From a virus: 64,000 nucleotides of DNA. The translations under genes were made by a program, and so were the position numbers. A model generated the notes under the pieces. It made no database searches. It had not been told where the DNA came from and saw nothing but the letters and a program-made list of their open reading frames with translations. The stretch spans positions 1 to 64,000 of the IMG/VR virus record IMGVR_UViG_3300010151_000007, one strand, 5' to 3'. Positions within the stretch are counted from its first letter, which is position 1; each line of letters starts with the position of its first letter. Below are positions 1-22,271 of the stretch, in pieces.

Positions 1-90
1 CGCGCTTGCTATACATGGGCTGCTGGTGGACCTATCAGCGAAGACGACAAATCAATTGAATGGCAAAGTAAAAATGAAACTCCTACTTGA
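1..90 (+). CDS. 3' end of a phage protein truncated by the window start (…RACYTWAAGGPISEDDKSIEWQSKNETPT*)
   Basis: Frame 1 is open from base 1 to TGA at 88-90. The stop lies inside the leader repeat of the next gene. Not in the supplied track. Confidence 0.6.
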   Translation, partial: RACYTWAAGGPISEDDKSIEWQSKNETPT

Positions 91-454
91 AAATTGGAAT
101 TCGTTTTTAGCCGAAGAGAAAAAAACTATTATTGCTTATCACGGCAGTAATGTTCCGATTTACAAGTTTAGTCGAGATTATGGGGCACAAGGAGTCATGT
201 GGTTCTCTCAAAATAAAGACTTAATTCTCAGGGGAGAAAGCGGTGCTTGCTCAACCAAGTGGCTGATGACGGTAGAACTATCCGTTGATAGGACCGCTGG
301 CTGGGATGAGTACGATAAACTTGCTTTACAACAAATTGAAGATTCTGGATATGATAGCATTCTGCTCGATGATAATTGGGTTGTATTTGATCCAAAAAGA
401 ATCAAAGTTGTCAAGGTAGAAAAAACACCATGCAACATAAGGGGCGAACAATGA
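74..454 (+). CDS. Leader-bearing cargo protein, ADP-ribosyltransferase-like (H-type) domain
   Basis: Start moved to ATG 74 (MKLLLENWNSFLAEE). Motifs AYHGS, GVMWFS and GYDSI...VVFDPKRIK match the pattern of phage ART-like domains. Confidence 0.6.
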   Translation: MKLLLENWNSFLAEEKKTIIAYHGSNVPIYKFSRDYGAQGVMWFSQNKDLILRGESGACSTKWLMTVELSVDRTAGWDEYDKLALQQIEDSGYDSILLDDNWVVFDPKRIKVVKVEKTPCNIRGEQ

Positions 455-1083
455 AACTAATACTTGAAAATTGGCGGAAATACGTTAACGAAAATAAAGA
501 CTTGTTTACTTACATTAAGTCTGGTAGAAATCGGGATATATTTATGAATTATTCTGATACATATAACATTTATTTGGATTGGATCTCGTGGGATAAGAAG
601 GATCCTGCCGCCAGAGCTTATGTCAACCACTTTGATGAGATGGCCGCAAAGTATAGCGAGACAACAGGTGAATCTCCCTATTGGAAAAATCCCAGCGATA
701 TATGGGATGTCAAGCCGGAATTCTATAGATTTTTTGATCCCTCGGATCTTGTGGCCGCGATAAAACGGCAACAGGGTCGGTCAGATCCCGGTGCGGTGCG
801 TCGTCTCACCAAAAGACTTAAAAAGGATTATGATTCTATAGAAGCCGCAGAAGAAATGGCTAAAAAAACAAACGAACTGGCCAACCAAGCTTATAAGAGC
901 CTTATGAGTTATCGAAAAGAGTTTCTGGACCAAGGCGCCATTACCGGCGCGGAAGAAAATAAGCGAATCGTTGATCATTTGCCTTCTGCCTTTATTTATC
1001 GGCCATTCATGAATCCCCCAGGCTATGAAGGAACAGATCTGGCCGGTAAAGTCGATATCAGGGGAGCGCATTTAGAGCAATGA
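451..1083 (+). CDS. Leader-bearing hypothetical cargo protein
   Basis: Starts MKLILENWRKYVNE at ATG 451, in an ATGA overlap with the upstream stop. No recognisable domain. Confidence 0.75.
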   Translation: MKLILENWRKYVNENKDLFTYIKSGRNRDIFMNYSDTYNIYLDWISWDKKDPAARAYVNHFDEMAAKYSETTGESPYWKNPSDIWDVKPEFYRFFDPSDLVAAIKRQQGRSDPGAVRRLTKRLKKDYDSIEAAEEMAKKTNELANQAYKSLMSYRKEFLDQGAITGAEENKRIVDHLPSAFIYRPFMNPPGYEGTDLAGKVDIRGAHLEQ

Positions 1084-1631
1084 AACTCCTACTTGAAAAC
1101 TGGCGAAAGTATATAACAGAACAAACGGAAGTTTGGGGACATCATATTAGCCCAGAGGAAAAAGTCTTTGTTTCTGATAAACCTTATACAAGTTTTCGTA
1201 ACGTTCGACAGGAGACACCTGCACACTCGATGATTAAGCCTAAAGGTCTTTGGTATTCTTGCGGAGACAGTTGGGCCGAGTTCAGCAAACAGACATGGGA
1301 TCAAGTACGGGGAAATCACCTTTATGGGTTGGAACTAGGTGATAGTGTCCTTCAAATCTCAACAGAAGAAGAACTTGAACAGTTCATTGATAGGTTTTTG
1401 ACGCCGGGACAATTTGGAAAAGTTTTGGATTGGAAGAAAGTTCAAGACGAAGGGTATGCTGGTGTTGAAATCTGCCCTTATAACTGGGAAGCTCGCCAAC
1501 GTGCATTGAACGGGGATCCCAGATTTGAATGGTATTACACTTGGGACGTCGCTTCTGGATGTATATGGGATAGTAAAGGTGTAAAGAGTGTTAAGCTTTT
1601 AACGGAGAGAACAAATGAAACTCCTACTTGA
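1080..1631 (+). CDS. Leader-bearing cargo protein, possible ART-like fold
   Basis: Starts MKLLLENWRKYITE. KPKGLWYS, DWKKVQDEGYAGVEI and WYYTWDVASGCIWD resemble phage/giant-virus ART-like proteins. Confidence 0.55.
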   Translation: MKLLLENWRKYITEQTEVWGHHISPEEKVFVSDKPYTSFRNVRQETPAHSMIKPKGLWYSCGDSWAEFSKQTWDQVRGNHLYGLELGDSVLQISTEEELEQFIDRFLTPGQFGKVLDWKKVQDEGYAGVEICPYNWEARQRALNGDPRFEWYYTWDVASGCIWDSKGVKSVKLLTERTNETPT

Positions 1632-1689
1632 AAACTGGCGAAAGTATTTGAATGAGAGGGTTCTTCTTCCGTGTAGTTACTATTTATGA
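1615..1689 (+). pseudogene. Orphan leader without cargo (MKLLLENWRKYLNERVLLPCSYYL*)
   Basis: A perfect leader repeat followed by only 10 codons and TGA at 1687-1689. Confidence 0.7.
1679..1686 (+). promoter_or_regulatory. Putative late promoter element CTAnTTA (ACTATTTA)
   Basis: The same motif recurs just upstream of starts at 3074, 4902, 6960, 13370, 18409, 21421, 25187 and 51992. Confidence 0.55.
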
Positions 1690-1709
1690 GTGTCGACGGG
1701 GCACATAAA

Positions 1710-2000
1710 ATGAAAAAATTATTGAATGAATGGAAAGAGTTCGCGAGTAAAGAAAAGATTCAGGAATTGCCGGGCGGCGTTTCAACTTTCGATCGCAGCC
1801 GAATTGAAGGTTTTGCAAAGAAGTATCCAGATGCTGTCGCATTCATGCACGCCCATGAAGATGATCTGCTTCGCAAATGGCTTATGGTTATCAAACACCA
1901 AACCACCCCTGACGAAGCGAGGGCTTACGGAGAAGTCACCATTGGCTTCCAAGAAGCACCGAAATTGGATGCAGTCCAAGAGATGGATTTTAAAGAATGA
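1710..2000 (+). CDS. Small hypothetical cargo protein with variant leader
   Basis: Starts MKKLLNEWKEF at ATG 1710; ATGA-coupled to the next gene. Confidence 0.65.
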   Translation: MKKLLNEWKEFASKEKIQELPGGVSTFDRSRIEGFAKKYPDAVAFMHAHEDDLLRKWLMVIKHQTTPDEARAYGEVTIGFQEAPKLDAVQEMDFKE

Positions 2001-2725
2001 GAAGACTTCTTCAAGAGTTTCAGCATTTCCTCTCTGAAAATCGTGGGCTGCCCGGTTCTATTTTACGGATCGAAGAAAAGATGAGAGATCTCTATTCTCG
2101 ATATGAAGATGATCATTGGGAAACAATTTTTGTAAGATTCCGCACATTCCTCAAACGTCATTCTGGTTTTGAAAGATTGGGTGGCGGTTCTTTTCGTGAG
2201 ACATTCGCCTTCAAAGACAACAATGAGTTTGTGATCAAGATTGCAAAGTACAACGAATATAAAGGATACCGGGGTGGTGCAGGGTCTGCTCGCACATATA
2301 ATAAAAATGAAGCAAACCAGGAAATGCACACCAAGTATCCATCACTCTTTCCCAAAGTCTTCTATGCCGCCCCGGATGATTCTTGGTATATCACTCAACG
2401 AGTATATGTTGCAAAGGATGACCATACTTTAGCTCAAATGTTCGATGCGTCCTCGTGGTACGATGTTGTCGATTTTGTTTTGGTTATTCGTGTAGTAATC
2501 AGAAACGGTGATTCCTTCGAAGATGTCGAAACAGATAAAAAATATAAAATTCACCAACACGTATGGAGGAGAACAAAGAAATTTCTTCAATACCCTCAAC
2601 TTGTTGAATGGGCCAAAGCATCTGTTGAATTTGACGTTGACGTTGACGATGTTCGTTTCGGCAATGCCGGCTGGGTTATTGAAGATGGTCAGAAACGATT
2701 CATTATCCTTGACTATATGCTCTGA
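1997..2725 (+). CDS. Minimal protein-kinase-like cargo protein
   Basis: Leader MRRLLQEFQHFLSE, Gly-loop LGGGSFRETF, VIKIA lysine, NKNE glutamate, catalytic DVRFGN and DFG-like LDY. Confidence 0.75.
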   Translation: MRRLLQEFQHFLSENRGLPGSILRIEEKMRDLYSRYEDDHWETIFVRFRTFLKRHSGFERLGGGSFRETFAFKDNNEFVIKIAKYNEYKGYRGGAGSARTYNKNEANQEMHTKYPSLFPKVFYAAPDDSWYITQRVYVAKDDHTLAQMFDASSWYDVVDFVLVIRVVIRNGDSFEDVETDKKYKIHQHVWRRTKKFLQYPQLVEWAKASVEFDVDVDDVRFGNAGWVIEDGQKRFIILDYML

Positions 2726-2780
2726 ATAAAGAGGGTAACAAGAAACGTTTCGTAATCTTAGGCTATATTTTAGACTAGGC

Positions 2781-2808
2781 TTGACATTTTCCCTCTATCG
2801 GTTAAGTC
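2781..2808 (+). promoter_or_regulatory. Sigma70-like promoter TTGACA-N16-TAAGTC with CGGT before the -10
   Basis: Read directly; followed by the RBS AGGAGG and ATG 2824. Confidence 0.65.
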
Positions 2809-2823
2809 ATAGGAGGAAGAAAA

Positions 2824-3036
2824 ATGAAAACAGAAGAATTTTGGTTGAACGAGACTTATAACTTTCTTGGCACAATGCTTGAGATTGTGGAGCACGCGAA
2901 GTCTTTGACAGATTCATTTGAAGAGCAATTATTGTTCACAGAATCCGAACACCAGGACATGCGCGATCGATACGAAGACATACAACATCAATTGGCGGCA
3001 ATTCAGGAGAAGTTCGAAAAAATAATCAGTGCTTAA
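2824..3036 (+). CDS. Small acidic coiled-coil hypothetical protein
   Basis: 70 aa, with its own promoter, a strong RBS and a downstream terminator. Confidence 0.75.
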   Translation: MKTEEFWLNETYNFLGTMLEIVEHAKSLTDSFEEQLLFTESEHQDMRDRYEDIQHQLAAIQEKFEKIISA

Positions 3037-3040
3037 CCCA

Positions 3041-3064
3041 AAAGACTCGAAAGAGTCTTTCTTA
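3041..3064 (+). terminator. Rho-independent terminator
   Basis: AAAGACTC-GAAA-GAGTCTTT hairpin with a GNRA loop and a T-rich tail. Confidence 0.75.
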
Positions 3065-3085
3065 CTTTTGAGACCTATTTAACCC

Positions 3086-4405
3086 ATGAACAATAAATAC
3101 AAACAATTCCTCAATGAATCAACCTATTCTTTCGATTATGATTCCACACTTATCAAATATCGTTATGAGCGTGACGAGAATGGTGAGATCGAAGATGTGG
3201 TCTATGACCAGCCGCACGATGTCAATATCGGTAAACTTCAAGACCTTGCCTCAAAAGGCCATAGAATCGTCATAGTGACCTCTAGAGTGCTCCCTAAGGC
3301 AGATGGAACCCAGTTTGCCTGGGATGACACCCCTGGTCCGGAGCAGTTTATTAGGGACCACGGTTTACCTGTGGAGGAAGTTTTTTACACAGATGGAAAA
3401 CCAAAGATCGACACTCTTGTTAAGCTTGGCGTCGTGGCCCATTGGGATGATGATGAGAACGAAATCGAACACATCGATCGATGGAACCGAGAGAATCCAG
3501 ATAAAAGGATCAAGTGGTACCAAGTTCCAGTTGAAGAAGGTTTGACCGAGGCGCTTCGCTCCAAGGTTATCAAATTGATTGATGAAAATCAGAACGCAAA
3601 TTTAGAACAAATGATTATGGACCAGTTCTCTTCTCACCCATCAGGTCGTCCTTATGAAAATTCACAACTGACAGAAGAAGTAAATTTGGACAACATCCTT
3701 TCAGGATTTGATGACAGATATCTATTAGGTTTTATCAGGCGCTTGAAAGAGGGTACTTTAGAAAGAGAAGGTCTTCGCGACGTCCTGACTGCAAGATCAA
3801 TTTATTTGTTCACAACACATAGTGTCAAGACTTTAAGAGATCCTGAACTTTTCGATTCTGATAAAGCTCGCGGCATTATTGCGGGGACTTCATACTTTTT
3901 AGGCTTTAGAGGGCCAGGGGTGATATCCGGAAAAAAGGCGACGGCGTTGTTTGCCAAAATACCGACAAAACTTATCTACCAAATTGCAAATAACATCGTC
4001 GTCAAGCTTGCAAGGCTTGAAAATCCGTTGGGGACCACAACTATTTCTCGCGGAATGGTTTTGCCAACCACGGCGGTCGATGAATTGATTCAAAACGGTG
4101 TAGGTACGACTTTCAACATGCGGAGCATTGCTTCGTGGACAGATGATTTCGATACGGCGTTTAGTTTTGCGAGGGGAGCCCATGAGACAAAGATAAAAGA
4201 AGATGACAAAAATAGAGAAGAATATCAAAAAGTATTATTTGTCGCCGAAAACTCAAAGTTTGGAATCGGTATCGAAGATCTTAGTGGATATTCATCGGAA
4301 CAAGAATATATAGTGGGTGGTCGCCAAATGATTATTAAACAAGTCATTATTAAACGACCACTGAAAGGAGCGTCTTGGGCAATCATCAAGGTTGAACTTC
4401 GTTAA
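3086..4405 (+). CDS. HAD phosphatase fused to an R-S-E type ADP-ribosyltransferase domain
   Basis: Leader ends FLNE. HAD motifs DYDST, VTSR, GKPK and WDDD. C-terminal SRGM, SIASWT and SEQEY form an ART triad. Confidence 0.75.
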   Translation: MNNKYKQFLNESTYSFDYDSTLIKYRYERDENGEIEDVVYDQPHDVNIGKLQDLASKGHRIVIVTSRVLPKADGTQFAWDDTPGPEQFIRDHGLPVEEVFYTDGKPKIDTLVKLGVVAHWDDDENEIEHIDRWNRENPDKRIKWYQVPVEEGLTEALRSKVIKLIDENQNANLEQMIMDQFSSHPSGRPYENSQLTEEVNLDNILSGFDDRYLLGFIRRLKEGTLEREGLRDVLTARSIYLFTTHSVKTLRDPELFDSDKARGIIAGTSYFLGFRGPGVISGKKATALFAKIPTKLIYQIANNIVVKLARLENPLGTTTISRGMVLPTTAVDELIQNGVGTTFNMRSIASWTDDFDTAFSFARGAHETKIKEDDKNREEYQKVLFVAENSKFGIGIEDLSGYSSEQEYIVGGRQMIIKQVIIKRPLKGASWAIIKVELR

Positions 4406-4689
4406 GTCAACCTAGTCCAGCCTTGTTCGTGATAATAGGACTTAAACTTATCCAGTGTGACTTTTGAAAATCGTTGTGAATTAATGTGGAATATCTCTAT
4501 TATTTTTTTAGAGTATTCCACTTTTGTCGTTACGAAGTAGGTTTGTGTGATTTCGCAAAACCACAATTCACCCGTGCGAACGCGAAAAGTGTCCCTCCAG
4601 GCGACCGAATGACTTGTGTCCCATTCGTGCGGCGCATAAGTATCGGATATCGCTGGATTCCATTTTCTTTTCACGTATGTTTCATCCAC
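4402..4689 (-). CDS. Small hypothetical protein, paralog of 4671..4895
   Basis: RTGELWF...YFV and a C-terminal GW shared with its neighbour. Its stop overlaps the stop of 3086..4405. Confidence 0.6.
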   Translation of the reverse strand: MDETYVKRKWNPAISDTYAPHEWDTSHSVAWRDTFRVRTGELWFCEITQTYFVTTKVEYSKKIIEIFHINSQRFSKVTLDKFKSYYHEQGWTRLT

Positions 4690-4895
4690 CCGGTTTCCCG
4701 TGTCTTGTCGTCGACCATCGATGCAATGCTTTGTACATATGTTGTTTGAAAAGCTACGTCATATATTTTTACATATTCGCTCCCAGAACCAAACATATTC
4801 TGTCTGATGTACGGTTCAGATGAAATGATAAAATAGAAACGCATGTCTAATACGCGATGTGACCATAATTGGCCTTTCTTCGGCTCCTCTTTCAT
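4671..4895 (-). CDS. Small hypothetical protein (SH3/KOW-like)
   Basis: KKGQLWS...YFI and a C-terminal GW. Upstream GAGG RBS and promoter on the minus strand. Confidence 0.65.
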   Translation of the reverse strand: MKEEPKKGQLWSHRVLDMRFYFIISSEPYIRQNMFGSGSEYVKIYDVAFQTTYVQSIASMVDDKTRETGWMKHT

Positions 4896-4922
4896 GTTTC
4901 CTCTATTTACTTGTATACTGAC

Positions 4923-4951
4923 AATGTAACCGATTTGGAGTCAAATGACAA
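4923..4951 (-). promoter_or_regulatory. Sigma70-like promoter TTGTCA-N17-TACATT with CGGT before the -10
   Basis: Reverse-complement read. It precedes the two minus-strand genes and overlaps the ATG of 4945..6477. Confidence 0.55.
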
Positions 4952-6477
4952 ACGAAAAATACATCAAAGATTTTAGATTGAAACTTCTAAAAGAGAATTT
5001 GAGTGCGAACCTCGAAATGTTGATAAACCAACAATTGACTTCTCACCCCTCTGGTCGAGAATACAACGATGCGATCGATGGCATGATCGCTGAAGAGGTT
5101 AATATTGAAAACATTTTATCTGGTTTTGATATTACCTATCTCAAAGGACTCATTAATCGCTCCAAAACCAGAAGACCTCAAGACTTTGCCCACGACTCCA
5201 CAATTAAAGATTTGATCGCAGCTTATGCTATCTGGATGTTCACTGTCGCTAACGTGGAAACAGTGAGGAACCCAGACAATTTCAGTTCAGATTCTGCCAA
5301 GCCCCTCGCCTACAACAACCCTTCGTTAGTTTACAGCTACAGAGGTGAGATGAAGGAGCTTCCTGATGAGAGTCCTTACAAAAAGTTCGCTAGAATCAGG
5401 CACAAAATTCCTACAAAAATGTGGTATCAAATATCCAACCACATCGTTTCTACTCTTGCCTCAATGCCGCATCCATGGGGGCAACAAGTTGTTTTTCGTG
5501 GAATGAAGCTACCGCTAGAGGCTGTAAAGGCGCTGAAAGCTGGCGAGAATTTCAATATGATGAGAATAGGTTCATGGTCCACCGACGGCGTGATGGCAGA
5601 ATCATATGCCTTGAGGTACGATAGGAACTCGCTTAAAAATTGGAAACCTGTCTTGTTCCATGGTCTGACCAAGATTGGCGCACCAGTGGACATGTTCAGT
5701 GGATTCCGATTAGAGAACGAGGTGGTGGTTGGTGGTGGTCAAATGAAAATCCTCAAAATCGATTCAGACGACGATATCACCGTTGTACAAATCAGAATAG
5801 AACAAGGTACTCAATTACAACAAGAGGTGCTTCCGAAGCGGGCGCGCAAGGCGGTTGCCACAGCCGCACTAGGGGCCGCCCTGGGCGGCGGTATAGGGGC
5901 GGGAGCAGCTTCTAGCCTCGTGGGCGATCGAGGTATCACACCAAGAGTTGAACAACCTGTAGACACCACACAGAGCGTTGAAGACGAAGGGCCAGAAGCC
6001 ACCCGAAAAATGCCAACCGATGGCACATTTGATTGGTCGATGTCCCCCGATCCAACAATGATCTGGATTAGTCCAGATCAAATTCCAGATGATTATATTT
6101 TACCATCATCGGGTAAAACAGCGGGAGAATGGCGACACGAACTAATGAACAAAAAAATGAAGAGAGGCGGAAACACTTGGGATATAGATGACCTTAAAAG
6201 AGTTCTGTTTTCCAATGCGGCGGCATGGGGTTATTCAACTTCTAAAAACGTAATCGCGTTTGACAGACACCCCGATCATGGTTACAGGATGCTGCCCCCA
6301 AAATGGTCACTTGCTTATGAAGTTTACGAAAAAAAGATAGGTATAGAGAGAATGGAGGCAGTTTTGCAAAAAAGTGATCAAGAGCAAGCTCAAATTGCAC
6401 AGAATCTTGACCTAACTGCTGGGGAACTACGAAAAAAGTTACAATTAGCCTTGTCAAATTTGAGGGGCGCAAAATGA
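4945..6477 (+). CDS. R-S-E ADP-ribosyltransferase (paralog of the 3086 C-domain) fused to a membrane-anchored C-terminal domain
   Basis: VFRGM, IGSWST and LENEV motifs. Shares SHPSGR.Y...EEVN..NILSGFD with 3086..4405. A hydrophobic Gly/Ala helix follows LQQE-VLPKRARK. Confidence 0.72.
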   Translation: MTNEKYIKDFRLKLLKENLSANLEMLINQQLTSHPSGREYNDAIDGMIAEEVNIENILSGFDITYLKGLINRSKTRRPQDFAHDSTIKDLIAAYAIWMFTVANVETVRNPDNFSSDSAKPLAYNNPSLVYSYRGEMKELPDESPYKKFARIRHKIPTKMWYQISNHIVSTLASMPHPWGQQVVFRGMKLPLEAVKALKAGENFNMMRIGSWSTDGVMAESYALRYDRNSLKNWKPVLFHGLTKIGAPVDMFSGFRLENEVVVGGGQMKILKIDSDDDITVVQIRIEQGTQLQQEVLPKRARKAVATAALGAALGGGIGAGAASSLVGDRGITPRVEQPVDTTQSVEDEGPEATRKMPTDGTFDWSMSPDPTMIWISPDQIPDDYILPSSGKTAGEWRHELMNKKMKRGGNTWDIDDLKRVLFSNAAAWGYSTSKNVIAFDRHPDHGYRMLPPKWSLAYEVYEKKIGIERMEAVLQKSDQEQAQIAQNLDLTAGELRKKLQLALSNLRGAK

Positions 6478-6496
6478 AAAAGAAACAAAAGAAGAA

Positions 6497-6751
6497 ATGA
6501 AAGGGAGTCTGATAAGGAGGCGATTGTTTCATTACATAGTCCACCTTGTAAGAACAACCGAAAGCGTAAAATATGAATACGGAGTCGTGATTTCAGACGA
6601 AAAGACGGAAACAATCCAATATGGTTTATCCTTTTATTCTGGAGATGACACCTATGACGTTGAAATGTGCTACATTGAGATATATTGGCTCAAAACAGGT
6701 GAACAAACAAGAGAGTATCTACCATTGGACGTCAAACTTGAGCTTCTATAA
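6497..6751 (+). CDS. Small SH3-like hypothetical protein
   Basis: KGSLIRR...YGVVIS...IEIYW pattern. Confidence 0.6.
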   Translation: MKGSLIRRRLFHYIVHLVRTTESVKYEYGVVISDEKTETIQYGLSFYSGDDTYDVEMCYIEIYWLKTGEQTREYLPLDVKLELL

Positions 6752-6953: not shown

Positions 6954-6971
6954 AAAGAGTCTATTTATACT

Positions 6972-7706: not shown

Positions 7707-7715
7707 GGATAAAAC

Positions 7716-12927: not shown

Positions 12928-13011
12928 GAAGTTTGGACAGTTCTTTCAATTCTTTTTTAAGACCAAGAGATATATGTTCCCTCAATGGTAATTACTGTTG
13001 GGGGTTTTATT

Positions 13012-13374: not shown

Positions 13375-13379
13375 TTATT

Positions 13380-13541: not shown

Positions 13542-15739
13542 AAGAATATACGAGAGTCAACGCTCAAGAGATGATGAGCAGTGAATCGGAATTTACGATT
13601 TCTTATGAAATTGAATTAGCTGCAAAAGAGCAGATGCGGCCCGAAAATGTAAAAGATTTGAAAGGCATTGAAAGTAGTCCCGAAGCCACAGCTAAAAAGG
13701 AAGCTTATTTCCTATCTCCGGAAGAGAAGAAATACCTTATTCTCAACTTATTTCGTATAGAACCAACAAAGTTGGCTGATTCAAAATACGTGGCTTCTAT
13801 GTTTTTTATGAGAGTCTTGCGAGACGAAATCTCTACAGAGGATATAAAAGAAACAATTTTAAACGTAGCACAAGATCTGACAGGTCGAGAATACGTTTCA
13901 GAATTCTTCAAAGCGTTCGAAATTGATGATACAAACACTATGGTTGAACTTGTTCAAGATTCTCTGGTTCATATCGGAAAGTTCCTGGATGAAGTCGCAA
14001 TTCAACCAAGAAACATCAAAGATCTATTAGAAAGCTTGAATTCAACGATCGCTAGAGGGGATACCGGCGACGAGGCGCGATGGGTTCTTGGTAAGCTAAA
14101 AAAACACTTGGCCATTGCTATTGCGGAAAGGGTCGGTCAGATAGAAGGCCGAACCGTATTCGCTTCAGGGGACGGTGACAACTACAACTACAAAAATGTT
14201 CAAGATCCGGTATTTATCGCTTACTTACAACATTTCCTACCAAATTTCATGAACAAATGGGAAGATAGACTAAAAATCGAAGTTGAATATAGCTTCCTGC
14301 GCGGTCAAGGCGTTGAATTTTCAATGAAGAAATACCTCAACGGTATTGATGAAGCTTTTGAATTTCTAGATGACTTGTATACAGAACTTGATGCACAGGA
14401 TTTCTTTTTTATGAAAGAAGACTTAACCGGACTGCACATCAATATTGGTACAACCGCAAAAAGACCATACAATCTAATGAAAGGTTTTCTTTATCTCGAC
14501 GAAGAGCAGAAGGGGGGTGGTTCGATGGCGAGGCGAGGACTATCTGACGCCAGAGTGTTCTCCAGGTGGGCTGGTACAGTAAAAGATGTTGCTTACTTGA
14601 AAATCCTTGAAACAATTGAAACCTTAATTGAAGAAGAGCCTGAATTTTGGTACCAAGGGATTATCCACGACCTTAAAAGGAGTCTCAAAAACCCAGAAGC
14701 GGGTTTAAGCAGTATCGAGAAGATTTTAAGTAATTGTATATTTAACGCCGCGCAAAATAAAGGCGCAAAAGATCTTGGTTTCAACGTATTATATACAAGA
14801 GGTCGAGACGGTGACTCCAACATAAGTTATGTTGAATTTAGATATCCAGGGGGTGTGGTTGATAGCAAAACGATGAAAGATTTGACCCTATATTACTGCT
14901 ACCTTGTTCTCCTCATGTCTGATCCGGACTTCAAAAAGAACGATTATCTTTCCAAGCTGGTTGGGTTCCTTAATAAAGTGTCCACACACCAAATGGAAGT
15001 TGTTGGTAAGAGGGCTAAACTTTTCAGGGCTGGAATGGGCTTCTATGTTGGAGGCTCCTTCAATCTTGATATCTTGATGATGAATACTCGCGATTTGGAG
15101 AAACGCAAGGTAGCATCATATGATATTCCGGTACCGATTAAAATACGTCATGTTTATTCATTAGTCGATATCATTTCTGTAAAAGATGAATATGGTGATG
15201 AAGAGTCTAGAAGCATAAGAAGAGCTATCGCCACAAAACCTTCACACATGATGGAGGAAACAGATTATGTCCCTGTTATGGTAAAGATTAAAGATGTCAA
15301 GCCAGAAGAAGATGAATATCTTGTCAGTTTCTTCTATGTTGATCAGAATTTAGAAGTCAAGGAATATGAAAGCTGGTTAGCCTCCTTTGAACTGTTAGAA
15401 TTCGTCTATATCAACCTCAATGATGAGATTTTCGAGGCCGATAGCTTAGTTGACGGCTACAAGCTTTCAAAGGACATAGCGAGAACATATGATGCATATG
15501 CGGAAGAAGTTCGCAAGGGTATCAAGTTCAGTTACGACATAGAGCAGGTCCAGAGCAATTATCGACAAGATCAAGATCTGAAAAACATAAAACAAAACAT
15601 AATTACTCTTGTCAAGGCAAGAGACAAGGGTACAATAAGCCAAGACCAACTACGTGCTGCCTTATTGAACATCAAGCAATCACAACCAGAGGCGGCACAA
15701 AAGTACAAAGCTTTGTTCGGCGCTCTATTAGGAAACTAA
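13523..15739 (+). CDS. Putative amidoligase (COOH-NH2 ligase type 2, glutamine-synthetase fold)
   Basis: SYEIEL, GVEFS, TGLHINIG, LGFN and YVEFRYPGG motifs. Confidence 0.78.
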   Translation: MDSKILKEYTRVNAQEMMSSESEFTISYEIELAAKEQMRPENVKDLKGIESSPEATAKKEAYFLSPEEKKYLILNLFRIEPTKLADSKYVASMFFMRVLRDEISTEDIKETILNVAQDLTGREYVSEFFKAFEIDDTNTMVELVQDSLVHIGKFLDEVAIQPRNIKDLLESLNSTIARGDTGDEARWVLGKLKKHLAIAIAERVGQIEGRTVFASGDGDNYNYKNVQDPVFIAYLQHFLPNFMNKWEDRLKIEVEYSFLRGQGVEFSMKKYLNGIDEAFEFLDDLYTELDAQDFFFMKEDLTGLHINIGTTAKRPYNLMKGFLYLDEEQKGGGSMARRGLSDARVFSRWAGTVKDVAYLKILETIETLIEEEPEFWYQGIIHDLKRSLKNPEAGLSSIEKILSNCIFNAAQNKGAKDLGFNVLYTRGRDGDSNISYVEFRYPGGVVDSKTMKDLTLYYCYLVLLMSDPDFKKNDYLSKLVGFLNKVSTHQMEVVGKRAKLFRAGMGFYVGGSFNLDILMMNTRDLEKRKVASYDIPVPIKIRHVYSLVDIISVKDEYGDEESRSIRRAIATKPSHMMEETDYVPVMVKIKDVKPEEDEYLVSFFYVDQNLEVKEYESWLASFELLEFVYINLNDEIFEADSLVDGYKLSKDIARTYDAYAEEVRKGIKFSYDIEQVQSNYRQDQDLKNIKQNIITLVKARDKGTISQDQLRAALLNIKQSQPEAAQKYKALFGALLGN

Positions 15740-15740
15740 A

Positions 15741-16091
15741 ATGAAAGAAATTATACTATTAGCACAGCCAAAGAATCCATACGCTGACTTGAGCAAGATG
15801 ATAACAGAAGTTATCCAAGAAATGAGAAGCGATGCGCCGTATTACGGTGACGAATTGAAGGATGATCAGAAGGTGGTGTATGAACGCTATAACACTTTTA
15901 TGGAGACCTTTCAGCAAACAGCAGAGAAGTTTCTCGAACAAGCCCAAATGGATTTTCAAGCTGGACATATCCAGTCAAACGACATTCAGATGCTCCTGAA
16001 TGATCAGCTAGAGAGATTACAAGATCAGGTTTCGTACATGATAGCGTCTTTGGAAGCCTATAATAAAAAAGAACATGGACATATCGACTAA
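15741..16091 (+). CDS. Hypothetical helical protein
   Basis: 116-aa ORF tightly packed in the operon. Confidence 0.7.
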   Translation: MKEIILLAQPKNPYADLSKMITEVIQEMRSDAPYYGDELKDDQKVVYERYNTFMETFQQTAEKFLEQAQMDFQAGHIQSNDIQMLLNDQLERLQDQVSYMIASLEAYNKKEHGHID

Positions 16092-16320
16092 AACTTTTTA
16101 TGATATGAATTTTTCCAACATTCTTCATGAGGTTGGGAATGCTGTTAAATGGAAACACAACATCGCAGCAAAAATTGAATATGGTGTTATTTGCAAAATA
16201 TACAACACATTTATAGGTGGCCGGATGATAAAGTACGCAAACGTCTTTTCCTTAAGTGAACAGAGAATTAAGAAAATAGCAGTATGGAAATTGGAGATAT
16301 TAACTAAAAATGAAATATAA
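16075..16320 (+). CDS. Small SH3-like hypothetical protein
   Basis: VGNAVKWK...YGVICK...ANVF pattern. Confidence 0.6.
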   Translation: MDISTKTFYDMNFSNILHEVGNAVKWKHNIAAKIEYGVICKIYNTFIGGRMIKYANVFSLSEQRIKKIAVWKLEILTKNEI

Positions 16321-16888
16321 CTTGACAAACGAGTCTCATATTGATACTAATGAAATCGAACCTATTCTGGATAAGTTCATTCCTTACGCCCAGCAGAAGA
16401 TGGGGTTCAATAGGCCCCCGAACCTTTTTCTGACTTCAGACGAGGCTAATGCGTTAGATCCGTTGGGTAAAACCGCATATTTCAACCCAGAAAATGATCA
16501 AATCGTCATTTATACAGACAATCGCCATATCAAAGATGTGTTGCGTTCTATTGGTCACGAATTAGTGCATTTTACACAACGTTGCAATGGGGAACTGGGT
16601 GATGCATCCGGTGCCGCCGAAGACGGCTATGCACAAAAAGACAGTCATTTAAGAGACATGGAAAAACAAGCTTATCAAACCGGTAATATGGTTTTTAGAG
16701 ATTTCGAAGATAACTACAAAAAACAAAGAGAGGGAGTTATGGAAGAAAGCAAAAAAGGTAAAACTCACGATCCCTATGAGCATGAAGGGTGGTATGAAGA
16801 CAAGAAAAAAGATAGAGCAAAAGAACTTTATGATTTGATGCTCAATAAATTTGGCTTAAAAACCAAGAAGAAAACCCTCAAGGATTAA
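16310..16888 (+). CDS. Zincin-like metallopeptidase
   Basis: LGKTAYF.P, DVLRSIGHELVH and EKQAY. Confidence 0.75.
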   Translation: MKYNLTNESHIDTNEIEPILDKFIPYAQQKMGFNRPPNLFLTSDEANALDPLGKTAYFNPENDQIVIYTDNRHIKDVLRSIGHELVHFTQRCNGELGDASGAAEDGYAQKDSHLRDMEKQAYQTGNMVFRDFEDNYKKQREGVMEESKKGKTHDPYEHEGWYEDKKKDRAKELYDLMLNKFGLKTKKKTLKD

Positions 16889-16891
16889 TAG

Positions 16892-18409
16892 ATGGCTTTA
16901 GGTACATACGGTTATATTGTAGCAACAACCAGTTCAACTTTGTCTAGTGCAGAGTTCAATATGTTTGATGAGGATAACTACGGAACATACGCATCCTCTG
17001 GTTCAAACAACAACACACTCTACACCAGTACCAACGGAAGAATGACTGTACAAGAATCTGGTCATTATTTAGTTGCCGGTAATTCATTCATACACGGAAG
17101 CACTACCACCAAACTAGTGCTTCGATTAAAAGTAAACGGGGTAGTTAAATACGACACCGGACGATTTAGTATGGATATCTCAAGAGGGGTGTACAGTAGA
17201 CCATTTCATAAAATTCTTGAGTTAGATTCGGGGAGCTATATAGAGGCGTTTGTTGAAGATGAAGCAAATTCCACCTGTAGAGTTATGTCTGGTAGTTCGC
17301 TGTCTGTAATTAAGCTGTATCACCCGTATGGTACTATGGAATTAAATAAACCTACAGATGCATCTAGCGCGCAGTACAATCCTTTCAACACCGGGTCTGC
17401 GCCCGGTTCGGCTGGAATACTCTCTAGCAGTTTCAGCGGGGCGATGGCACAAGATCCGAGTGCGGGTCGTATACAAACTAATCTGTCTGGTAATTTTATG
17501 TATCTCATAAATGGGCGTGTTGGTGGATCTGGTGGGCCTAGTTTAGATGTAGAATATTACAAAAACGGCACTTCCAGAAAAACATATACAATAGAAAGAA
17601 CAGATGATGCTTTTGTGAATATTGCATTGATGAGCAATTTCGTTTCAGGGAATTCAGCGCACGTCGAAATAGATAATTCAAGTGTTTTTAGTACGAGCAC
17701 AGAAAGTGGTTCTGCTTTTTCATTATTCATGATGCCCACTGCTTCACACTATCTTTCTTTGATCGGGGATACTACGGCTAATTCGCAAACTGGGATTATG
17801 AATCCTTTTGACGAAGATATTTATTCATCTTATTCTTCCAGTGTTATGTTAAGTAATGGAATCACTTATAACCCTGCTAACGGAAGATTCTCTCCTTCTA
17901 GGAGTGGTGTCTATTTTGGATACTCCAACCTCCATATTGCAGTTTCGTCTGACGCAGATGATATCAAAATTAACATAAAGAAGAATGGTGCGACAAACAT
18001 TTATCAGAGTGTTCTTAAAGTAGACGCTAGCGATGATCCCGCTATTAGAAGTACAGTTTGGGTTGCAAGTTTAGATTCGAGCGATTATATGGAGATCACA
18101 CTTTCTTCGTCAGTGGGTCTTGTTTTTGGACCGGGCAGTTCGATGGCGTTCTACGAACTACTGTCTACAGGTTCTGCTGGTTCTGGTGGATCTTCTTCGC
18201 CAGCTAATGAATTTACTCAAAGCGGATCAAATAATTTAATCAATCGAGATTTTACTCTGAATACTTATGGGGCGAACAACCTAACAAATCAATATACTAG
18301 AACAGTAAAACAAGTACCCTTCATACTAGGAACTCCGGGACCTCTTTCTCTTAGAGGTCGTACAACTGGTACTGTTGATATTAGCCTGGGCGATTCTAAA
18401 GAGAATTAA
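16892..18409 (+). CDS. Virion protein with three tandem C1q/TNF-like domains
   Basis: Three repeats of G-R-x-T/S-x3-SG-x-Y/F ... L-x3-S/D-Y/A-x-E. Ser/Gly-rich; C-terminal QVPFILGTPGPLSLRGR. Confidence 0.65.
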   Translation: MALGTYGYIVATTSSTLSSAEFNMFDEDNYGTYASSGSNNNTLYTSTNGRMTVQESGHYLVAGNSFIHGSTTTKLVLRLKVNGVVKYDTGRFSMDISRGVYSRPFHKILELDSGSYIEAFVEDEANSTCRVMSGSSLSVIKLYHPYGTMELNKPTDASSAQYNPFNTGSAPGSAGILSSSFSGAMAQDPSAGRIQTNLSGNFMYLINGRVGGSGGPSLDVEYYKNGTSRKTYTIERTDDAFVNIALMSNFVSGNSAHVEIDNSSVFSTSTESGSAFSLFMMPTASHYLSLIGDTTANSQTGIMNPFDEDIYSSYSSSVMLSNGITYNPANGRFSPSRSGVYFGYSNLHIAVSSDADDIKINIKKNGATNIYQSVLKVDASDDPAIRSTVWVASLDSSDYMEITLSSSVGLVFGPGSSMAFYELLSTGSAGSGGSSSPANEFTQSGSNNLINRDFTLNTYGANNLTNQYTRTVKQVPFILGTPGPLSLRGRTTGTVDISLGDSKEN

Positions 18410-18678: not shown

Positions 18679-18689
18679 AGGGAAGTATA

Positions 18690-21449
18690 ATGGGTAAAAT
18701 TTTACTTGAAGGTGGAAACATCTTTAAAGATGCCAATAAGACCCCACTAACTCAAAGGATTAATCGGGCAGATGTAGATCCAACTATTCGATGGCTGGAG
18801 GTTCTTCTCGACATATCTTTGATCGATCACAAACTTGGGACAACTGGTAAAAAACCAACTTCAGGAGATCTCGATCTCGCTGTTGATGAAACCCAAGTCT
18901 CGAAAGAGGATTTGATGAATGTTCTCAAGGCTTGGGTCAAACAAAACCACCCCAAAGATCGTATGAGATCTTGGGTTGCAAAATCTGGTATTAGCCTTCA
19001 TTTCAAAACACCAATCAACGGTGATGACAGCCAAGGCTATGTCCAGACAGATTTGATGTTTGGTGATCCTCAATATATGGCTTGGTCTAGCCAAGGTGAA
19101 CCGGGTGAACAATATCGCGGACAACATAGAATGATCCTCCTTAATTCTATCGCTTCGGCAAAAGGTTATAAGTGGTCGGGATTTAATGGTCTAACCAATC
19201 GAAAAACCATGGAGAAAACAACTGATATCCAGCAGATAACAGATATTCTTTTAGGTCCTGATGGGAGTCCTGATGATTTAACAACAATTCCTAGAATCCT
19301 TGCCGCAATATCGGGTGATGAGAATTACGATCAGTTAGTCGCGATGGCGATTGAAACTTTCCCCAAGTTCGGAGTTAAATTCCCAGAAAGAACCTCTTCA
19401 CTATCAGAATCTATTCTTTTAGAGGGTGGTCTTGCCGGACACATGAGTCATCTTCATGAAAATCCAAACCTGACCTTTCATGAGATCAAAGAGATCTTCA
19501 AAAAGGCCGCCAACGGTCAACTTGAGGGCACAGAGAAAACAGATGGCCAAAACATCTTTATTTCATACAACGTAAATGATGGAACAGCAAGGGCTGGTCG
19601 AAATAAAACGAATATAAAAAACGGTGGTATGACTTCTGACGAACTCGCTGCCAAGTTTGCCGGTCGCGGCGAAGTCGAATGGGCTTTCCGCGATGCATTT
19701 GGTGCTTTCGAAAGGGCTGTAGCGAAATTTACACCTGATGAGCAGATAGCAATCTTTGGTGATGACACAAACATCTATTATAACGCAGAGATTCAGGATC
19801 CTCGTAATGCAAATACTATTAACTACGATCGTAAAACTTTGACTATTCACAGAGTGGGTCACGGAGAGTTCAACCGCACCACTGGCGTCAAAACCGAACG
19901 CGACGTGACAAGACAGGCGTTCATGCTTGGCAAAACATTGGAGAGGACGCAAGAACAGATTCAGGACGAAGAATTTCGTATTGAAATCAATGCAATCAGA
20001 AAATTGCAGCAATTATCCGAACAAAAGCCTTTGAACGATGCTTTAGAACAATTAGAAAGTATCATGGATTTGGAAGGAATCAGTGACAATCATTCGGTTG
20101 GAGATTATCTTGTTTCACGCCTTGCTAAAACTGTCGATTATTGGGTGCCGGGTATCCCTGCCGGGACGAAGCAAGTAATCTTAAAAAGATTGTTGGGCGA
20201 AAAGGGTACAAATATTCGACACATTTTAGCTTCTGTTCCAGAAGATATGAAAGATGATATCAGGGAAATGTTGGGTGACTCAAAGTCAATTATTAAAGAC
20301 GCCGTCTCTCCTTTGGAGGGTATCATTCACACATTTTCTGTAGAAATGCTAAGCAACTTGGAGAGTGCTTTCATTCTGGATAATGAAAAAGAAGTCAATC
20401 GCCTTCAAGCGATGATACGTAAGGCGATCAAGTTAATCAAGAAAAGCAAACGCGAAGACGCAATGGAAATCCTACAAACACAACTGACTAAACTCAAGAG
20501 TGTCGAAAAGATTTCCTCCGCTGTTGAAGGGTTCGTTTTTGATTACAATGGAAGCACCTATAAGTTTACTGGGAACTTTACGCCGATTAATAACATTCTT
20601 GGGATGTTCACTTATGGTACCAAAGATTTTACTCCGTTGGATTTCGATTCTGACGACGATACGATAGCCGAGAGCGAGTCGGACGGTTCAAAGGGGTCTC
20701 CAGTGGTTCGACGCCTTGCGATCGTACCAGGAGCCTTCAAGCCGCCTCACAAGGGACATCTAGCGATGGTCATGCATTACGCAGAACTGGTCGACAAGGT
20801 AATCGTGATGGTTTCCCCTCTTTCAAGGCAGACGCCTTCAGGGAAAGACATCGGTTTCGGGGCGTCGGAAGCTATTTGGGGGCTTTACCTAGATGCTTAT
20901 GGGTTACGAGAAAAGGTTCAGGTTGTTCGTTCGCCGGTAAACTCTCCAGTCCGTGCGGCATTTGATTTTGTTGCGAATGAAGACAGTAACCCATTGTTTG
21001 CGCAAGCTGGGGATTTAATAATTCTTGGAACCAGCACGAAGGGCGGTGATCAATCGAGGTTCAACCAGAACCTTCAACAATACGCTGGGGCAGGTGTGAC
21101 TATCGCTAATGCGCTAGAATATGCTTACACTCCTCAAGAAGAACATGCATTAAGCGCATCGGATTTTAGAAAGATTCTGGAAACTGGCGGAAGTGAAGAG
21201 CTTGAAAGATTTATTCCAAAGAAAGTAGATCATCAACAAGTGTATGATATCCTTCAGCGGGCCGCAGGACTAGAAGAGAAGAAAAAACCTTATATGGAGC
21301 CACACATGCACCAAGACCAAGAAATGGTTGACGAAACGTCAACTGTGGCTGCTGTTGGTGGTTTTGCAGGTTCGGTTAAACCAAAATACAATAGAAAAGA
21401 AATAGTCGAATCAGTTTTCAACTACTTATTAGGGAAAGAGGTGTTATAA
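18690..21449 (+). CDS. Polyprotein: Pol-beta-type nucleotidyltransferase + KxDG ligase-like domain + HxGH nucleotidylyltransferase
   Basis: LGTTGKKPTSGDLDL...VQTD; GHMSH...TEKTDGQN...EGFVF; PGAFKPPHKGH...SAS.FR. ILLEGG precedes domains 1 and 2. Confidence 0.75.
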   Translation: MGKILLEGGNIFKDANKTPLTQRINRADVDPTIRWLEVLLDISLIDHKLGTTGKKPTSGDLDLAVDETQVSKEDLMNVLKAWVKQNHPKDRMRSWVAKSGISLHFKTPINGDDSQGYVQTDLMFGDPQYMAWSSQGEPGEQYRGQHRMILLNSIASAKGYKWSGFNGLTNRKTMEKTTDIQQITDILLGPDGSPDDLTTIPRILAAISGDENYDQLVAMAIETFPKFGVKFPERTSSLSESILLEGGLAGHMSHLHENPNLTFHEIKEIFKKAANGQLEGTEKTDGQNIFISYNVNDGTARAGRNKTNIKNGGMTSDELAAKFAGRGEVEWAFRDAFGAFERAVAKFTPDEQIAIFGDDTNIYYNAEIQDPRNANTINYDRKTLTIHRVGHGEFNRTTGVKTERDVTRQAFMLGKTLERTQEQIQDEEFRIEINAIRKLQQLSEQKPLNDALEQLESIMDLEGISDNHSVGDYLVSRLAKTVDYWVPGIPAGTKQVILKRLLGEKGTNIRHILASVPEDMKDDIREMLGDSKSIIKDAVSPLEGIIHTFSVEMLSNLESAFILDNEKEVNRLQAMIRKAIKLIKKSKREDAMEILQTQLTKLKSVEKISSAVEGFVFDYNGSTYKFTGNFTPINNILGMFTYGTKDFTPLDFDSDDDTIAESESDGSKGSPVVRRLAIVPGAFKPPHKGHLAMVMHYAELVDKVIVMVSPLSRQTPSGKDIGFGASEAIWGLYLDAYGLREKVQVVRSPVNSPVRAAFDFVANEDSNPLFAQAGDLIILGTSTKGGDQSRFNQNLQQYAGAGVTIANALEYAYTPQEEHALSASDFRKILETGGSEELERFIPKKVDHQQVYDILQRAAGLEEKKKPYMEPHMHQDQEMVDETSTVAAVGGFAGSVKPKYNRKEIVESVFNYLLGKEVL

Positions 21450-22271
21450 ATGGCAAAGCATGAAGATTTAGCAGAAGAGCTTATGCTAAGATCCAATATT
21501 CGTAGACTTATGCGCAAACAATATAAGCGTAAGTATTTTGAAACATTAACGGAAAATGTTAATCGTTCAAACGAAGAGGTGTATCTACGCAAAGTTGTTC
21601 GCAAGTTAATTCGCGAAAGAGTGGCGGTTGCTGATAAAGTACCTCACCGTAGTACCGGTATTAATGTGCTTGAAGACTTACTCAAAAAGATCGTGCCAGT
21701 GCTGGAAACCGATTACAAGTCTCTGACGACTGATCGTGAACAAAGAGAATCTTTCCGCAAGCATGTTACTAATGGTATCGACAATTTGTTAGCTCCTACT
21801 GAAATTAATCTTAAAGCAGCAAGAGAGCAAAATCCACTGCCAGACATGGACGCGCCGATGCCTGAAACAGAGTTGGGTGAAGAAGTTGATATAAGTGTTG
21901 GTGATAAATTAGGTGGTGATGACAAATATATCGATATAGGCCGGGACGAGCCCGCACCCGAAGTTGATGACATTGACGACATTGAAAAAAATATCACAAC
22001 AGGCTTAGAAGATCAGGATTTAGACACTACTGGTAAAAACGTAGCCCATTCCTCGTTTAAGAAGATTGAGCAAAATATTCTAGATTCATTCGACTTACTT
22101 AGTAACAGTGAAGATAGAGAAGTGTTTCACGATTACTTAAAGACAAATTTACTATTGTATATGGATAAATTTGAAGATGAATTAACTAATAGCCTCCCAG
22201 ATGTGACGACCGCTCAATACGACCAAGCTACTCGCGGCGGTGAAGAAGGGGATCCGCAGCAACAGTTATAA
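21450..22271 (+). CDS. Acidic phage protein with multiple L/I-x-E sites (probably head-associated)
   Basis: 273 aa containing LAEE, LTE, IRE and LGEE. Late-type motif upstream at 21421. Confidence 0.65.
   Translation: MAKHEDLAEELMLRSNIRRLMRKQYKRKYFETLTENVNRSNEEVYLRKVVRKLIRERVAVADKVPHRSTGINVLEDLLKKIVPVLETDYKSLTTDREQRESFRKHVTNGIDNLLAPTEINLKAAREQNPLPDMDAPMPETELGEEVDISVGDKLGGDDKYIDIGRDEPAPEVDDIDDIEKNITTGLEDQDLDTTGKNVAHSSFKKIEQNILDSFDLLSNSEDREVFHDYLKTNLLLYMDKFEDELTNSLPDVTTAQYDQATRGGEEGDPQQQL

Follow-up and report, generated by a model that had tools for sequence, protein, structure and literature searches.

A 14-residue N-terminal leader on unrelated proteins of uncultured marine T4-like phages resembles the T4 capsid-targeting sequence

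The internal proteins (IPs) of bacteriophage T4 are small and highly basic, and the T4 targeting system relies on a short peptide at the extreme N terminus that is common to otherwise unrelated proteins. The T4 leader occurs once as MKTFKEFIKE and twice as MKTYQEFIAE, the latter two copies being identical over 30 of 30 nt (PMC8442874); its targeting function has been mapped to residues 4 and 7 and its processing to residues 8 and 10, and reviews have suggested that T4-like phages load various proteins by such leaders (PMC9026906). Alt, an ADP-ribosyltransferase (ART) packaged in the T4 head, is processed after an I/L-x-E motif, its 6-residue propeptide being cut at ITE (PMC5694885). In the giant phages phiKZ and SPN3US, diverged paralogues among the ejection proteins have N-terminal propeptides in common, and cleavage by a homologous protease follows the Glu of a three-residue motif (PMC5694885). 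Delivery along with the DNA has also been predicted for polyvalent proteins and MuF-linked effectors (Iyer et al. 2017, PMC5512222). Among T4-like cyanophages, LC-MS detected the cytidylyltransferase S-SZBM1_140 in purified virions (PMC9146016), and kinases and cytidylyltransferases recur in virion proteomes (PMC10665884); the passages of these studies considered here contain no discussion of a targeting leader.

We analysed a window of 64,000 nt from a 100-kb viral contig of an uncultured marine T4-like phage, which represents about 55% of a far-T4-like myovirus genome. A 14-residue leader with the consensus MKLLLENWRKY-[LIV]-x-E heads seven plus-strand open reading frames (ORFs) of this contig, starting at 74, 451, 1080, 1615, 1710 and 1997 and, in genome coordinates beyond the window, at 74272. 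The bodies behind these leaders are unrelated. Scored by ungapped BLOSUM62 comparison with the consensus against a null of 18,600 shuffled N-termini (mean −7, s.d. 8), the leaders at 74, 451, 1080, 1615, 1710 and 74272 reach 34–76, values attained by 0 of the 18,600 shuffles, and the leader at 1997 scores 29 (P = 5e-5 on the same null). At 3086 the match is confined to the C-terminal half of the leader (P = 5e-4). A six-frame regular-expression scan placed the leader on the plus strand only, and at ORF starts only. The terminal hydrophobic-x-E is present at 74, 451, 1080, 1615, 1997 and 3086, and absent at 1710.

A sequence-only reading of this DNA had described related leaders on ten proteins, and all ten N-terminal strings are present where it placed them. 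Relatedness holds for 74, 451, 1080, 1710 and 1997 and, in a short form, for 3086. The leaders at 4945, 7716, 13523 and 18690 score at shuffle background (P = 0.05–0.2); 4945 and 18690 are recovered through their homologues only, and 7716 and 13523 drop out. Two copies had been missed by that reading, the stub at 1615–1689 and the gene at 74272. As judged from sequence, at least six complete genes (74, 451, 1080, 1997, 3086 and 74272) carry a functional-looking leader.

Several features of this leader are those of the T4 system: a short peptide at the extreme N terminus of unrelated proteins, an aromatic-x-x-aromatic-(L/I)-x-E ending, a gp21-type protease in the genome, neighbouring genes with identical leader DNA and hypervariable cargo. 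Aligned from the cleavage end, T4 residues 4, 7, 8 and 10 correspond to W8, Y/F11, L/I/V12 and E14. Counted from the cleavage site, W8 occupies P7 and Y/F11 occupies P4, the positions of Y4 and F7 in T4. Unlike the T4 leader, however, the present one has 14 residues rather than 10, with an added MKLL-type start; it heads acidic enzymes of 100–900 aa, in contrast to the IPs, and more than 100 cargo families in an uncultured marine clade known here from sequence alone.

The contig also encodes the head genes expected of a T4-type phage. The portal gp20 (PF07230, E = 4e-74), the prohead protease (Peptidase_S77, gp21-type, E = 2e-30) and the capsid protein (Gp23, E = 8e-75) were identified with Pfam, the latter two above its cutoff, and a scaffold protein is assigned by position only, without a family match. 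The S77 protease is present in eight of eight near-complete leader-bearing genomes. The capsid propeptide contains four L-x-E motifs, kept in six clade genomes, and the last of these, L-Q-E at residues 60–62, falls opposite LTE-65, the site of T4 gp23 maturation, in the alignment. Considering the sequence data together with the analogy to T4, we regard the 14-residue leader as the probable counterpart, in this lineage, of the T4 capsid-targeting sequence. The N-terminal amphipathic helix of the leader would bind the scaffolding core of the growing prohead, and the tagged protein would be enclosed as the gp23-type shell forms. The S77 protease would then cut behind the hydrophobic-x-Glu that ends the leader, and might do the same behind L-L-E at residues 4–6, leaving a mature enzyme that would remain in the head, enter the cell along with the DNA and possibly serve there against host defence.

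The array opens with a 126-aa protein (74–454, plus strand) whose canonical leader ends in LAE and scores 54. Its direct match to Pfam ART-PolyVal (PF18760) is below the cutoff (21.3 versus 31.2 bits, E = 4.8e-4); it has 601 relatives, of which P0058, P0076 and P0009, similar to it at E = 1e-19 to 1e-21, carry ART-PolyVal above the cutoff over the same region, and the protein has a YHGS motif. These data support its assignment as a putative ART, as had been proposed. It is like Alt in being a putative ART-superfamily enzyme, and unlike it in probably belonging to the ART-PolyVal (H-Y-E) type rather than the Alt/Mod type, with 112 aa after the leader. The leaders of its relatives are T4-type 10-mers, the long leader or a MKIT...IIKEE type, and the genes with T4-type 10-mers lie within a T4-like structural module. 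The same domain occurs in multidomain relatives of 1,100–4,500 aa, one of which also contains Tad3 and a borderline Acb1. The cargo thus draws on the same domain pool as the polyvalent and MuF-linked effectors, whereas here each domain has one small gene and a leader of its own, 3086, 4945 and 18690 being small fusions.

The next gene (451–1083, plus strand), which overlaps the preceding one at an ATGA, joins a canonical leader ending in VNE (score 71) to a 196-aa body that has no homologues in Pfam, PHROG or locally. It is followed by a canonical leader ending in ITE with a phrog_8582 domain (1080–1631, plus strand). In the AlphaFold2 model of this protein (pLDDT 88), leader residues 1–13 form a low-confidence helix detached from the globular domain. 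Foldseek returned nothing at E < 1e-3, and VIA-align gave a best Z of 4.7, with ADP-ribosyltransferase folds making up most of the 49 listed matches; the model is suggestive of an ART-like fold. The ORF at 1615–1689 (plus strand) is a leader-only stub of 24 codons, a leader remnant. At 1710–2000 (plus strand), a diverged MKKLLNEW-type leader, with a score (34) above all shuffles, precedes an 80-aa body for which no homologues were found; this leader has no hydrophobic residue at P3 ahead of the next Glu, and its status is doubtful.

A protein-kinase-like domain follows a diverged leader ending in LSE at 1997–2725 (plus strand). Its homologue in another genome (L066) has a canonical leader, and the alignment of the two begins at residue 1 (E = 6e-16). 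A second protein-kinase-like gene, without a recognisable leader, lies at 6972–7706 (plus strand), and its homologues carry either leader type. Neither protein has a Pfam match; in an eight-sequence alignment that includes this family (A1) the GxG motif, K81, N223/G225 and D239 are invariant, and the kinase-like PDB profile matches the SteC kinase (E = 1.8e-4). A protein-kinase-like identity for both is supported by these profiles and alignments, in agreement with the earlier listing of a kinase among the cargoes.

The remaining leader genes of the window are fusions. The protein at 3086–4405 (plus strand) has an 11-aa leader of T4 length ending in FLNE, a HAD-like domain and, behind an internal decayed leader, a second domain; we have moderate confidence in the HAD identity. 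At 4945–6477 (plus strand) two cargo domains are fused that in other phages are separate proteins with canonical leaders. The N-terminal half aligns in register with a canonical-leader protein of L020, and residues 12–25 are therefore a decayed leader, with TTG as its first codon. The gene at 18690–21449 (plus strand) combines a seven-residue leader, a Pol-beta-type nucleotidyltransferase (moderate confidence) and a conserved ligase-like and cytidylyltransferase-like part, with ILLE-GG at the junction. Its first domain is homologous to two proteins (in L004 and L048) whose leader stops right before a common GGN(I/V)F, and its MGKILLE is thus the same leader minus seven residues, resembling the short propeptide of Alt.

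The cyanophage enzymes resemble 18690 only in the region of the HxGH motif (E = 0.03). The enzyme classes in the array, kinases and cytidylyltransferases, are those reported from cyanophage virions (PMC9146016, PMC10665884), whereas the cyanophage leaders are of the short T4 type: S-SZBM1_140 (a 9-mer), Syn9 gp184 and P-SSM2_194 start with 9–10-mers like the T4 capsid-targeting sequence. The phiKZ and SPN3US proteins differ from the present ones, with an A/S-x-E motif, long propeptides, another lineage and other cargo.

The payload had been proposed to form a single locus of about 22 kb, and the locus did not survive in that form. The stretch from 7716 to 18409 (plus strand) contains genome-specific ORFans (1456 and 738 aa), a lipoprotein-like ORF and a C1q-like protein whose C1q match in Pfam is weak, all with leader scores at background. 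The leaders claimed at 7716 and 13523 are unsupported because neither protein has relatives in five complete clade genomes or in IMG/VR, and the amidoligase identity of 13523, which comes from Atlas, is only a lead. On present evidence this stretch is outside the leader system. Likewise, the C-terminal two thirds of 18690 and the gene at 21450 are conserved clade genes that have no leader in other phages.

Beyond this genome, the leader heads at least 225 distinct complete proteins, which form 110 unrelated cargo clusters and come from at least 120 IMG/VR contigs. The pattern used for this search ends at residue 11 and fixes W8 and Y/F11, which are independent observations only in the copies of this genome and the relatives of the 1080 protein (P1080). 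It had more than 160 matches, nearly all at ORF starts, where by our estimate about one was expected by chance in all of IMG/VR. Downstream of the pattern, [LIVMF]-x-E ends at residues 14–17 in 132 of 144 unique leaders (92%), compared with 19% of other N-termini, and leaders with a one-residue insertion still keep L-x-E; the description of leaders mostly ending in hydrophobic-x-E on unrelated proteins is thus borne out, 1710 excepted. Short forms of 10–11 residues also occur in the clade. These numbers bear on the reading of the leaders as N-terminal helices inherited by ordinary paralogues, or as chance likeness of Lys/Leu/Glu-rich N-termini, which is very improbable and for the core set is already contradicted by the unrelated bodies, the 110 clusters, the scores that no shuffle reached and the excess over chance matches, even though K, L and E abound at the N-termini of this AT-rich genome and four of the ten leaders originally claimed do not rise above chance when only sequence is considered.

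Two other explanations deserve fuller consideration. The leader could be a DNA-level cassette junction, a shared start module of 30–40 nt that serves recombinational gene swapping and translation start and has no sorting role. The 1080 and 1615 leaders are identical at 33 of 33 nt, the array contains ATGA overlaps and a leader-only stub, and in many genomes leader arrays occupy a fixed hypervariable site upstream of the conserved 18690/21450 pair, all of which fit such a module. Synonymous codons of the leader are also non-random, CTC-CTA-CTT and CGA being 4–7 times commoner than in gene bodies, which implies that the leader is conserved partly as DNA. However, the peptide is kept through different codons in other genomes (for example G001 and G004): many different codons are used for Arg9, for the aliphatic residue 12 and for Glu14, and residues 12–14 stay hydrophobic-x-Glu throughout such codon changes, indicating that selection acts on the peptide. 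Leaders internalised after fusion have lost exactly the aromatics W and Y. Moreover, the T4 ipII and ipIII leaders are equally identical in DNA and yet are a proven sorting signal, so both roles can coexist. We consider a junction with no sorting role unlikely.

Recognition by another partner, such as a co-encoded modifying enzyme or a host factor, or a role in degradation or timing, seems to us similarly improbable. The acidic, enzyme-like nature of the cargo is in its favour: the mature proteins have a median pI of 5.0, compared with 5.4 in neighbouring genes (4.9–7.3 for the proteins of the window), and therefore are not IP-like, although the leader may work like an IP leader. The commonest cargo families of the clade, NUDIX, HAD and NT5C hydrolases, look like ordinary enzymes of nucleotide metabolism; this and the acidity of the cargo count against capsid loading. 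Yet a tag of this kind would explain neither why the leader ends in hydrophobic-x-Glu nor why it matches the T4 determinants. As for a modifying enzyme, a Radical_SAM gene is present in one of four complete leader genomes, away from the leaders, and absent from this contig; RB43 gave no leader match even with two mismatches allowed.

Support for late expression of the leader genes is weak, which counts against capsid loading. A strand-biased CTA[ATC]TTA precedes the capsid and tail genes of this genome as well as 1710, 3086, 4945 and 6972, but across the clade the motif is not enriched before leader genes (23% versus 19%).

Since the principle is established for T4 and reviews already suggest wider loading (PMC9026906), what is gained is breadth and a new leader form rather than a new mechanism. 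If the leader does address proteins to the capsid, leader-bearing metagenomic genes become predictable as delivered with the DNA. This would provide a large, testable catalogue of the first-minute effectors of unculturable phages, to which the 120 contigs sampled already contribute more than 100 cargo families, and capsid loading in the T4 superfamily would span T4, cyanophages and far-T4 lineages and include enzymes, not only small basic proteins. We tentatively propose, as a possibility somewhat short of an even chance, that the extended leader allows injected cargo to be recognised in the sequences of a large marine T4-like clade, whose genomes measure about 180–200 kb and for which we found no cultured member. 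Enzymes would make up most of such cargo (NUDIX, HAD/NT5C nucleotidases, protein-kinase-like, ART-PolyVal and Pol-beta nucleotidyltransferases) and could act before phage gene expression, with host proteins or nucleotide-based immune signals as examples of their targets, and the leader itself may be a composite of an LL-x-x-W half and an IP-type targeting half. The LL-x-x-W of its first half also occurs at the N-termini of T4 gp21, T4 gp23 and the capsid protein of this phage.

A 14-residue N-terminal leader, consensus MKLLLENWRKY-[LIV]-x-E, is a real and widespread feature of these phages. A six-frame regular-expression search of the genome retrieved seven copies (74, 451, 1080, 1615, 1710, 1997 and 74269/74272), all on the + strand and all at ORF starts. 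The sequence-only reading had proposed ten such N-termini as cleavable leaders of capsid-packaged enzymes spread over 22 kb (74–22271). We scored these N-termini ungapped against the consensus (BLOSUM62), with a null distribution from 18,600 shuffled N-termini, since an initial leader HMM built from pattern-selected copies (E-N-W invariant) under-scored diverged ones. Scores at 74, 451, 1080, 1615, 1710 and 74272 (34–76) were reached by no shuffle and 1997 scored 29 (p = 5e-5), confirming the leaders proposed at 74, 451, 1080, 1710 and 1997. The ORF at 1615 is a 24-codon stub whose first 33 nt are the same as in gene 1080. The match at 3086 is confined to the final seven residues (p = 5e-4), and 4945, 7716, 13523 and 18690 scored at background (p = 0.05–0.2).

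Homology clarifies several of the weaker cases. The protein at 1997 has a canonical-leader homologue in IMG/VR, with the alignment starting at residue 1 (E 6e-16); a separate homologue search with it returned the query as the sole match. The N-terminal domain of 3086 is, with moderate support, HAD-like, in line with the HAD phosphatase among the proposed cargoes, and matches canonical-leader proteins. A different canonical-leader protein matches the C-terminal half of 3086, ahead of which lies an internal, decayed leader copy without the Trp and Tyr. The protein at 4945 is a fusion of two cargo domains of the canonical-leader kind, in which residues 12–25 are a decayed leader with TTG as first codon. 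The protein at 6972 has no leader; among its homologues, some carry the canonical form and others a second leader type, MKIT...IIKEE. In 18690 the first domain is, with moderate support, a Pol-beta-type nucleotidyltransferase, in agreement with the proposed cargo, and because the canonical leader of its homologues stops directly before the common GGN(I/V)F, the seven-residue N-terminus corresponds to the leader minus seven residues. ILLE-GG recurs at the junction of domains 1 and 2 (19413–19430, residues about 241–247), which is the start site (Met-Gly-Gly) of stand-alone homologues, and may mark a protease-cut joint of a polyprotein. For 7716 and 13523, a related-locus search, five complete genomes of the leader-bearing clade and IMG/VR yielded no relatives, leaving their proposed leaders unsupported. 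The 22 kb do not form a single payload block, as 7716–18409 shows no leader evidence; the locus is a hypervariable island whose live, decayed or truncated leaders are found in 74–7706 and at the beginning of 18690. Within the proposed payload locus, a 129-aa ORF at 12985–13374 has a lipoprotein-type signal (a Leu-rich stretch then Cys), which is a misfit for capsid cargo.

We extended the search to IMG/VR with a degenerate DNA pattern representing residues 1–11, residues 12–14 being left out. At least 163 copies were found in at least 120 contigs, nearly all at ORF starts, where the degeneracy of the pattern predicts about one match by chance. Among the matches listed, 132 of 144 unique copies end in [LIVMF]-x-E at residues 14–17, versus 19% of other N-termini, and the L-x-E is retained where one residue has been inserted. 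Many different codons are used for each of Arg9, the aliphatic residue 12 and Glu14, so the peptide is under selection. The codons of Leu3–5 and Arg9 are strongly biased to CTC-CTA-CTT and CGA relative to gene bodies, and this bias points to copying of leader DNA between genes; in T4, the leader DNA of ipII and ipIII is identical at 30/30 nt. Scanning relatives with an iterated leader profile, a check that the sequence-only reading had suggested, gave about 305 leader N-termini in loci among the matches listed, including short forms of 10–11 residues. At least 225 unique complete leader proteins among these matches resolve into 110 cargo clusters, with 73 singletons; NUDIX (E 5e-18), HAD-like and NT5C (E 3e-9) proteins make up the largest clusters. 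Complete genomes hold 1–5 long-form copies each; within a genome these share a strand without exception and are mostly arrayed, and the arrays are usually found upstream of 18690 and 21450 homologues. The long leader is absent from Microcystis phage Mel-JY01, Flavobacterium phage immuto and T4, the HAD cargo of one leader locus (L028) was found in no isolate, the protein P0142 has no match among isolate phages, and the leader string was not found in the literature searched.

The viral contig is a single 100,326-bp sequence (the window being its first 64 kb), estimated by CheckV as 55% of a genome, with every gene on the + strand. Beyond the window lie genes for a T4-type large terminase, the gp20 portal (+ strand, PF07230, E 4e-74), a gp21-type prohead protease (genome 87860–88462, + strand, Peptidase_S77, E 2e-30), the gp23 major capsid protein (91164–92894, + strand, E 8e-75) and the tail sheath. 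The nearest isolates by capsid protein are Mel-JY01, immuto and RM378, together with two uncultured huge phages, and blastn of 1–8000 against phage isolates gave no match. Judged by a capsid protein so distantly related to isolates (33–52% identity), the source is an uncultured far-T4-like myovirus. Its capsid propeptide has four L-x-E motifs kept across six clade genomes, the last of which, L-Q-E (residues 60–62 here), aligns with the maturation site of T4 gp23. Between the protease gene and that of the putative scaffold (genome 90043–91143, assigned by position), a 91-aa Arg/Lys-rich ORF (genome 89683–89958) resembles a Mel-JY01 gene in the same position annotated as ribosomal protein S21-like. 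The ORF list also contains a long block of sugar-nucleotide and nonulosonic-acid-type biosynthesis and glycosyltransferase-like genes at 28135–41392.

The targeting sequence of T4 internal proteins is MKTYQEFIAE (PMC8442874), in which residues 4 and 7 determine targeting and residues 8 and 10 processing (PMC9026906). Aligned at the cleaved Glu, these four positions correspond to W8, Y/F11, L/I/V12 and E14 of the leader. Peptidase_S77 is encoded in 8/8 records (180–203 kb) with the leader and a completeness of 98% or more, the set on which co-occurrence was judged, fragments being uninformative. In one clade genome an acidic leader-bearing protein is located within the head module, adjoining the protease gene. 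[quoted passage not shown] T4 gp21, T4 gp23 and the phage's own capsid protein have N-termini resembling the leader's first half, LL-x-x-W, a motif with eight occurrences in this proteome, of which three leaders and the capsid protein supply the four N-terminal ones; this likeness was noticed post hoc and is a lead only. Recognition of the leader as a tag by a radical-SAM enzyme is at odds with the data: the leader is absent from RB43, and only 1/4 complete leader genomes has a radical-SAM gene.

Several observations count against capsid targeting. The commonest cargo families resemble ordinary nucleotide-metabolism enzymes. With a median pI of 5.0 the cargo is acidic, whereas T4 internal proteins are basic. 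Finally, the evidence for late expression of the leader genes is weak. The late-promoter-like motif CTA[ATC]TTA occurs 31 times forward versus 3 in reverse (at 1680, 3075, 4903, 6961, 18410, 21422 and 51993, and at genome 89106–98824). It lies 11–47 nt before the genes for capsid, putative scaffold, sheath, tube and baseplate, and it likewise precedes 1710, 3086, 4945 and 6972, at just 4 nt from the ATG of 3086 and 6972; a terminator-like hairpin (3041–3060) stands ahead of the 3086 copy. Across the clade the motif is not enriched before leader genes, and sigma-70 promoter matches in 1–8000 are at chance level.

For enzymes under capsid-targeting sequences, T4-like cyanophages offer a parallel: the cytidylyltransferases of S-SZBM1, Syn9 and P-SSM2 have T4-like 9–10-mers at their N-termini. 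The S-SZBM1 enzyme is the sole one identified by LC-MS in that phage's virion proteome (PMC9146016), and there are repeated reports of kinases and cytidylyltransferases among cyanophage virion proteins, possibly as contaminants according to the authors (PMC10665884). In P-SSM2 (NC_006883, 99763–100529), the adjacent small genes PSSM2_114 and PSSM2_115 carry N-terminal near-copies of the T4 targeting sequence and adjoin an annotated virion structural gene, suggesting that they encode internal proteins so far unannotated in cyanophage isolates.

The proposed ART-like cargo is supported for 74, which has 601 relatives; in large multidomain relatives the region it aligns with exceeds the Pfam cutoff for ART-PolyVal, and one of these has an additional Tad3 domain and a borderline Acb1 domain. 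Small relatives begin with T4-type 10-mers, the long leader or the MKIT type, and two 10-mer genes sit between neck genes and terminase in a T4-like structural module whose terminase is 54% identical to cyanophage gp17. The assignment is less secure for 1080 (102 relatives, mostly with the long leader, some with intermediate or MKIT-type leaders, the distant ones leaderless). Its alignment-based AF2 model (pLDDT 88; a single-sequence model at pLDDT 40 was discarded) shows the leader as a detached, low-confidence helix and has weak fold matches (best Z 4.7), mostly to ADP-ribosyltransferases. Alignment profile A2 gave no PDB sequence match and no meaningful Pfam match. The proposed kinase cargo is supported at 1997 and 6972, two members of one protein-kinase-like family in which the kinase motifs are invariant and whose profile matches SteC kinase (E 1.8e-4). 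The amidoligase is a lead only, from an ESM Atlas link of 13523 to Amidoligase_2. Family and homologue searches assigned no function to 451 or 1710, and a ParB-like identity for 74272 (DGHHR motif) was rejected for want of Pfam support.

Both leader types occur in each of the kinase-like, ART-PolyVal and 1080 families, so one can probably stand in for the other. The second type, MKI-T/S ... I-I/K-x-E-E, also heads small genes after the primase gene (genome 76171–76874). A ~140-aa protein (genome 88682–89101), encoded just after the protease gene and conserved in all clade genomes examined, has a related N-terminus containing several [LIV]-x-E motifs.
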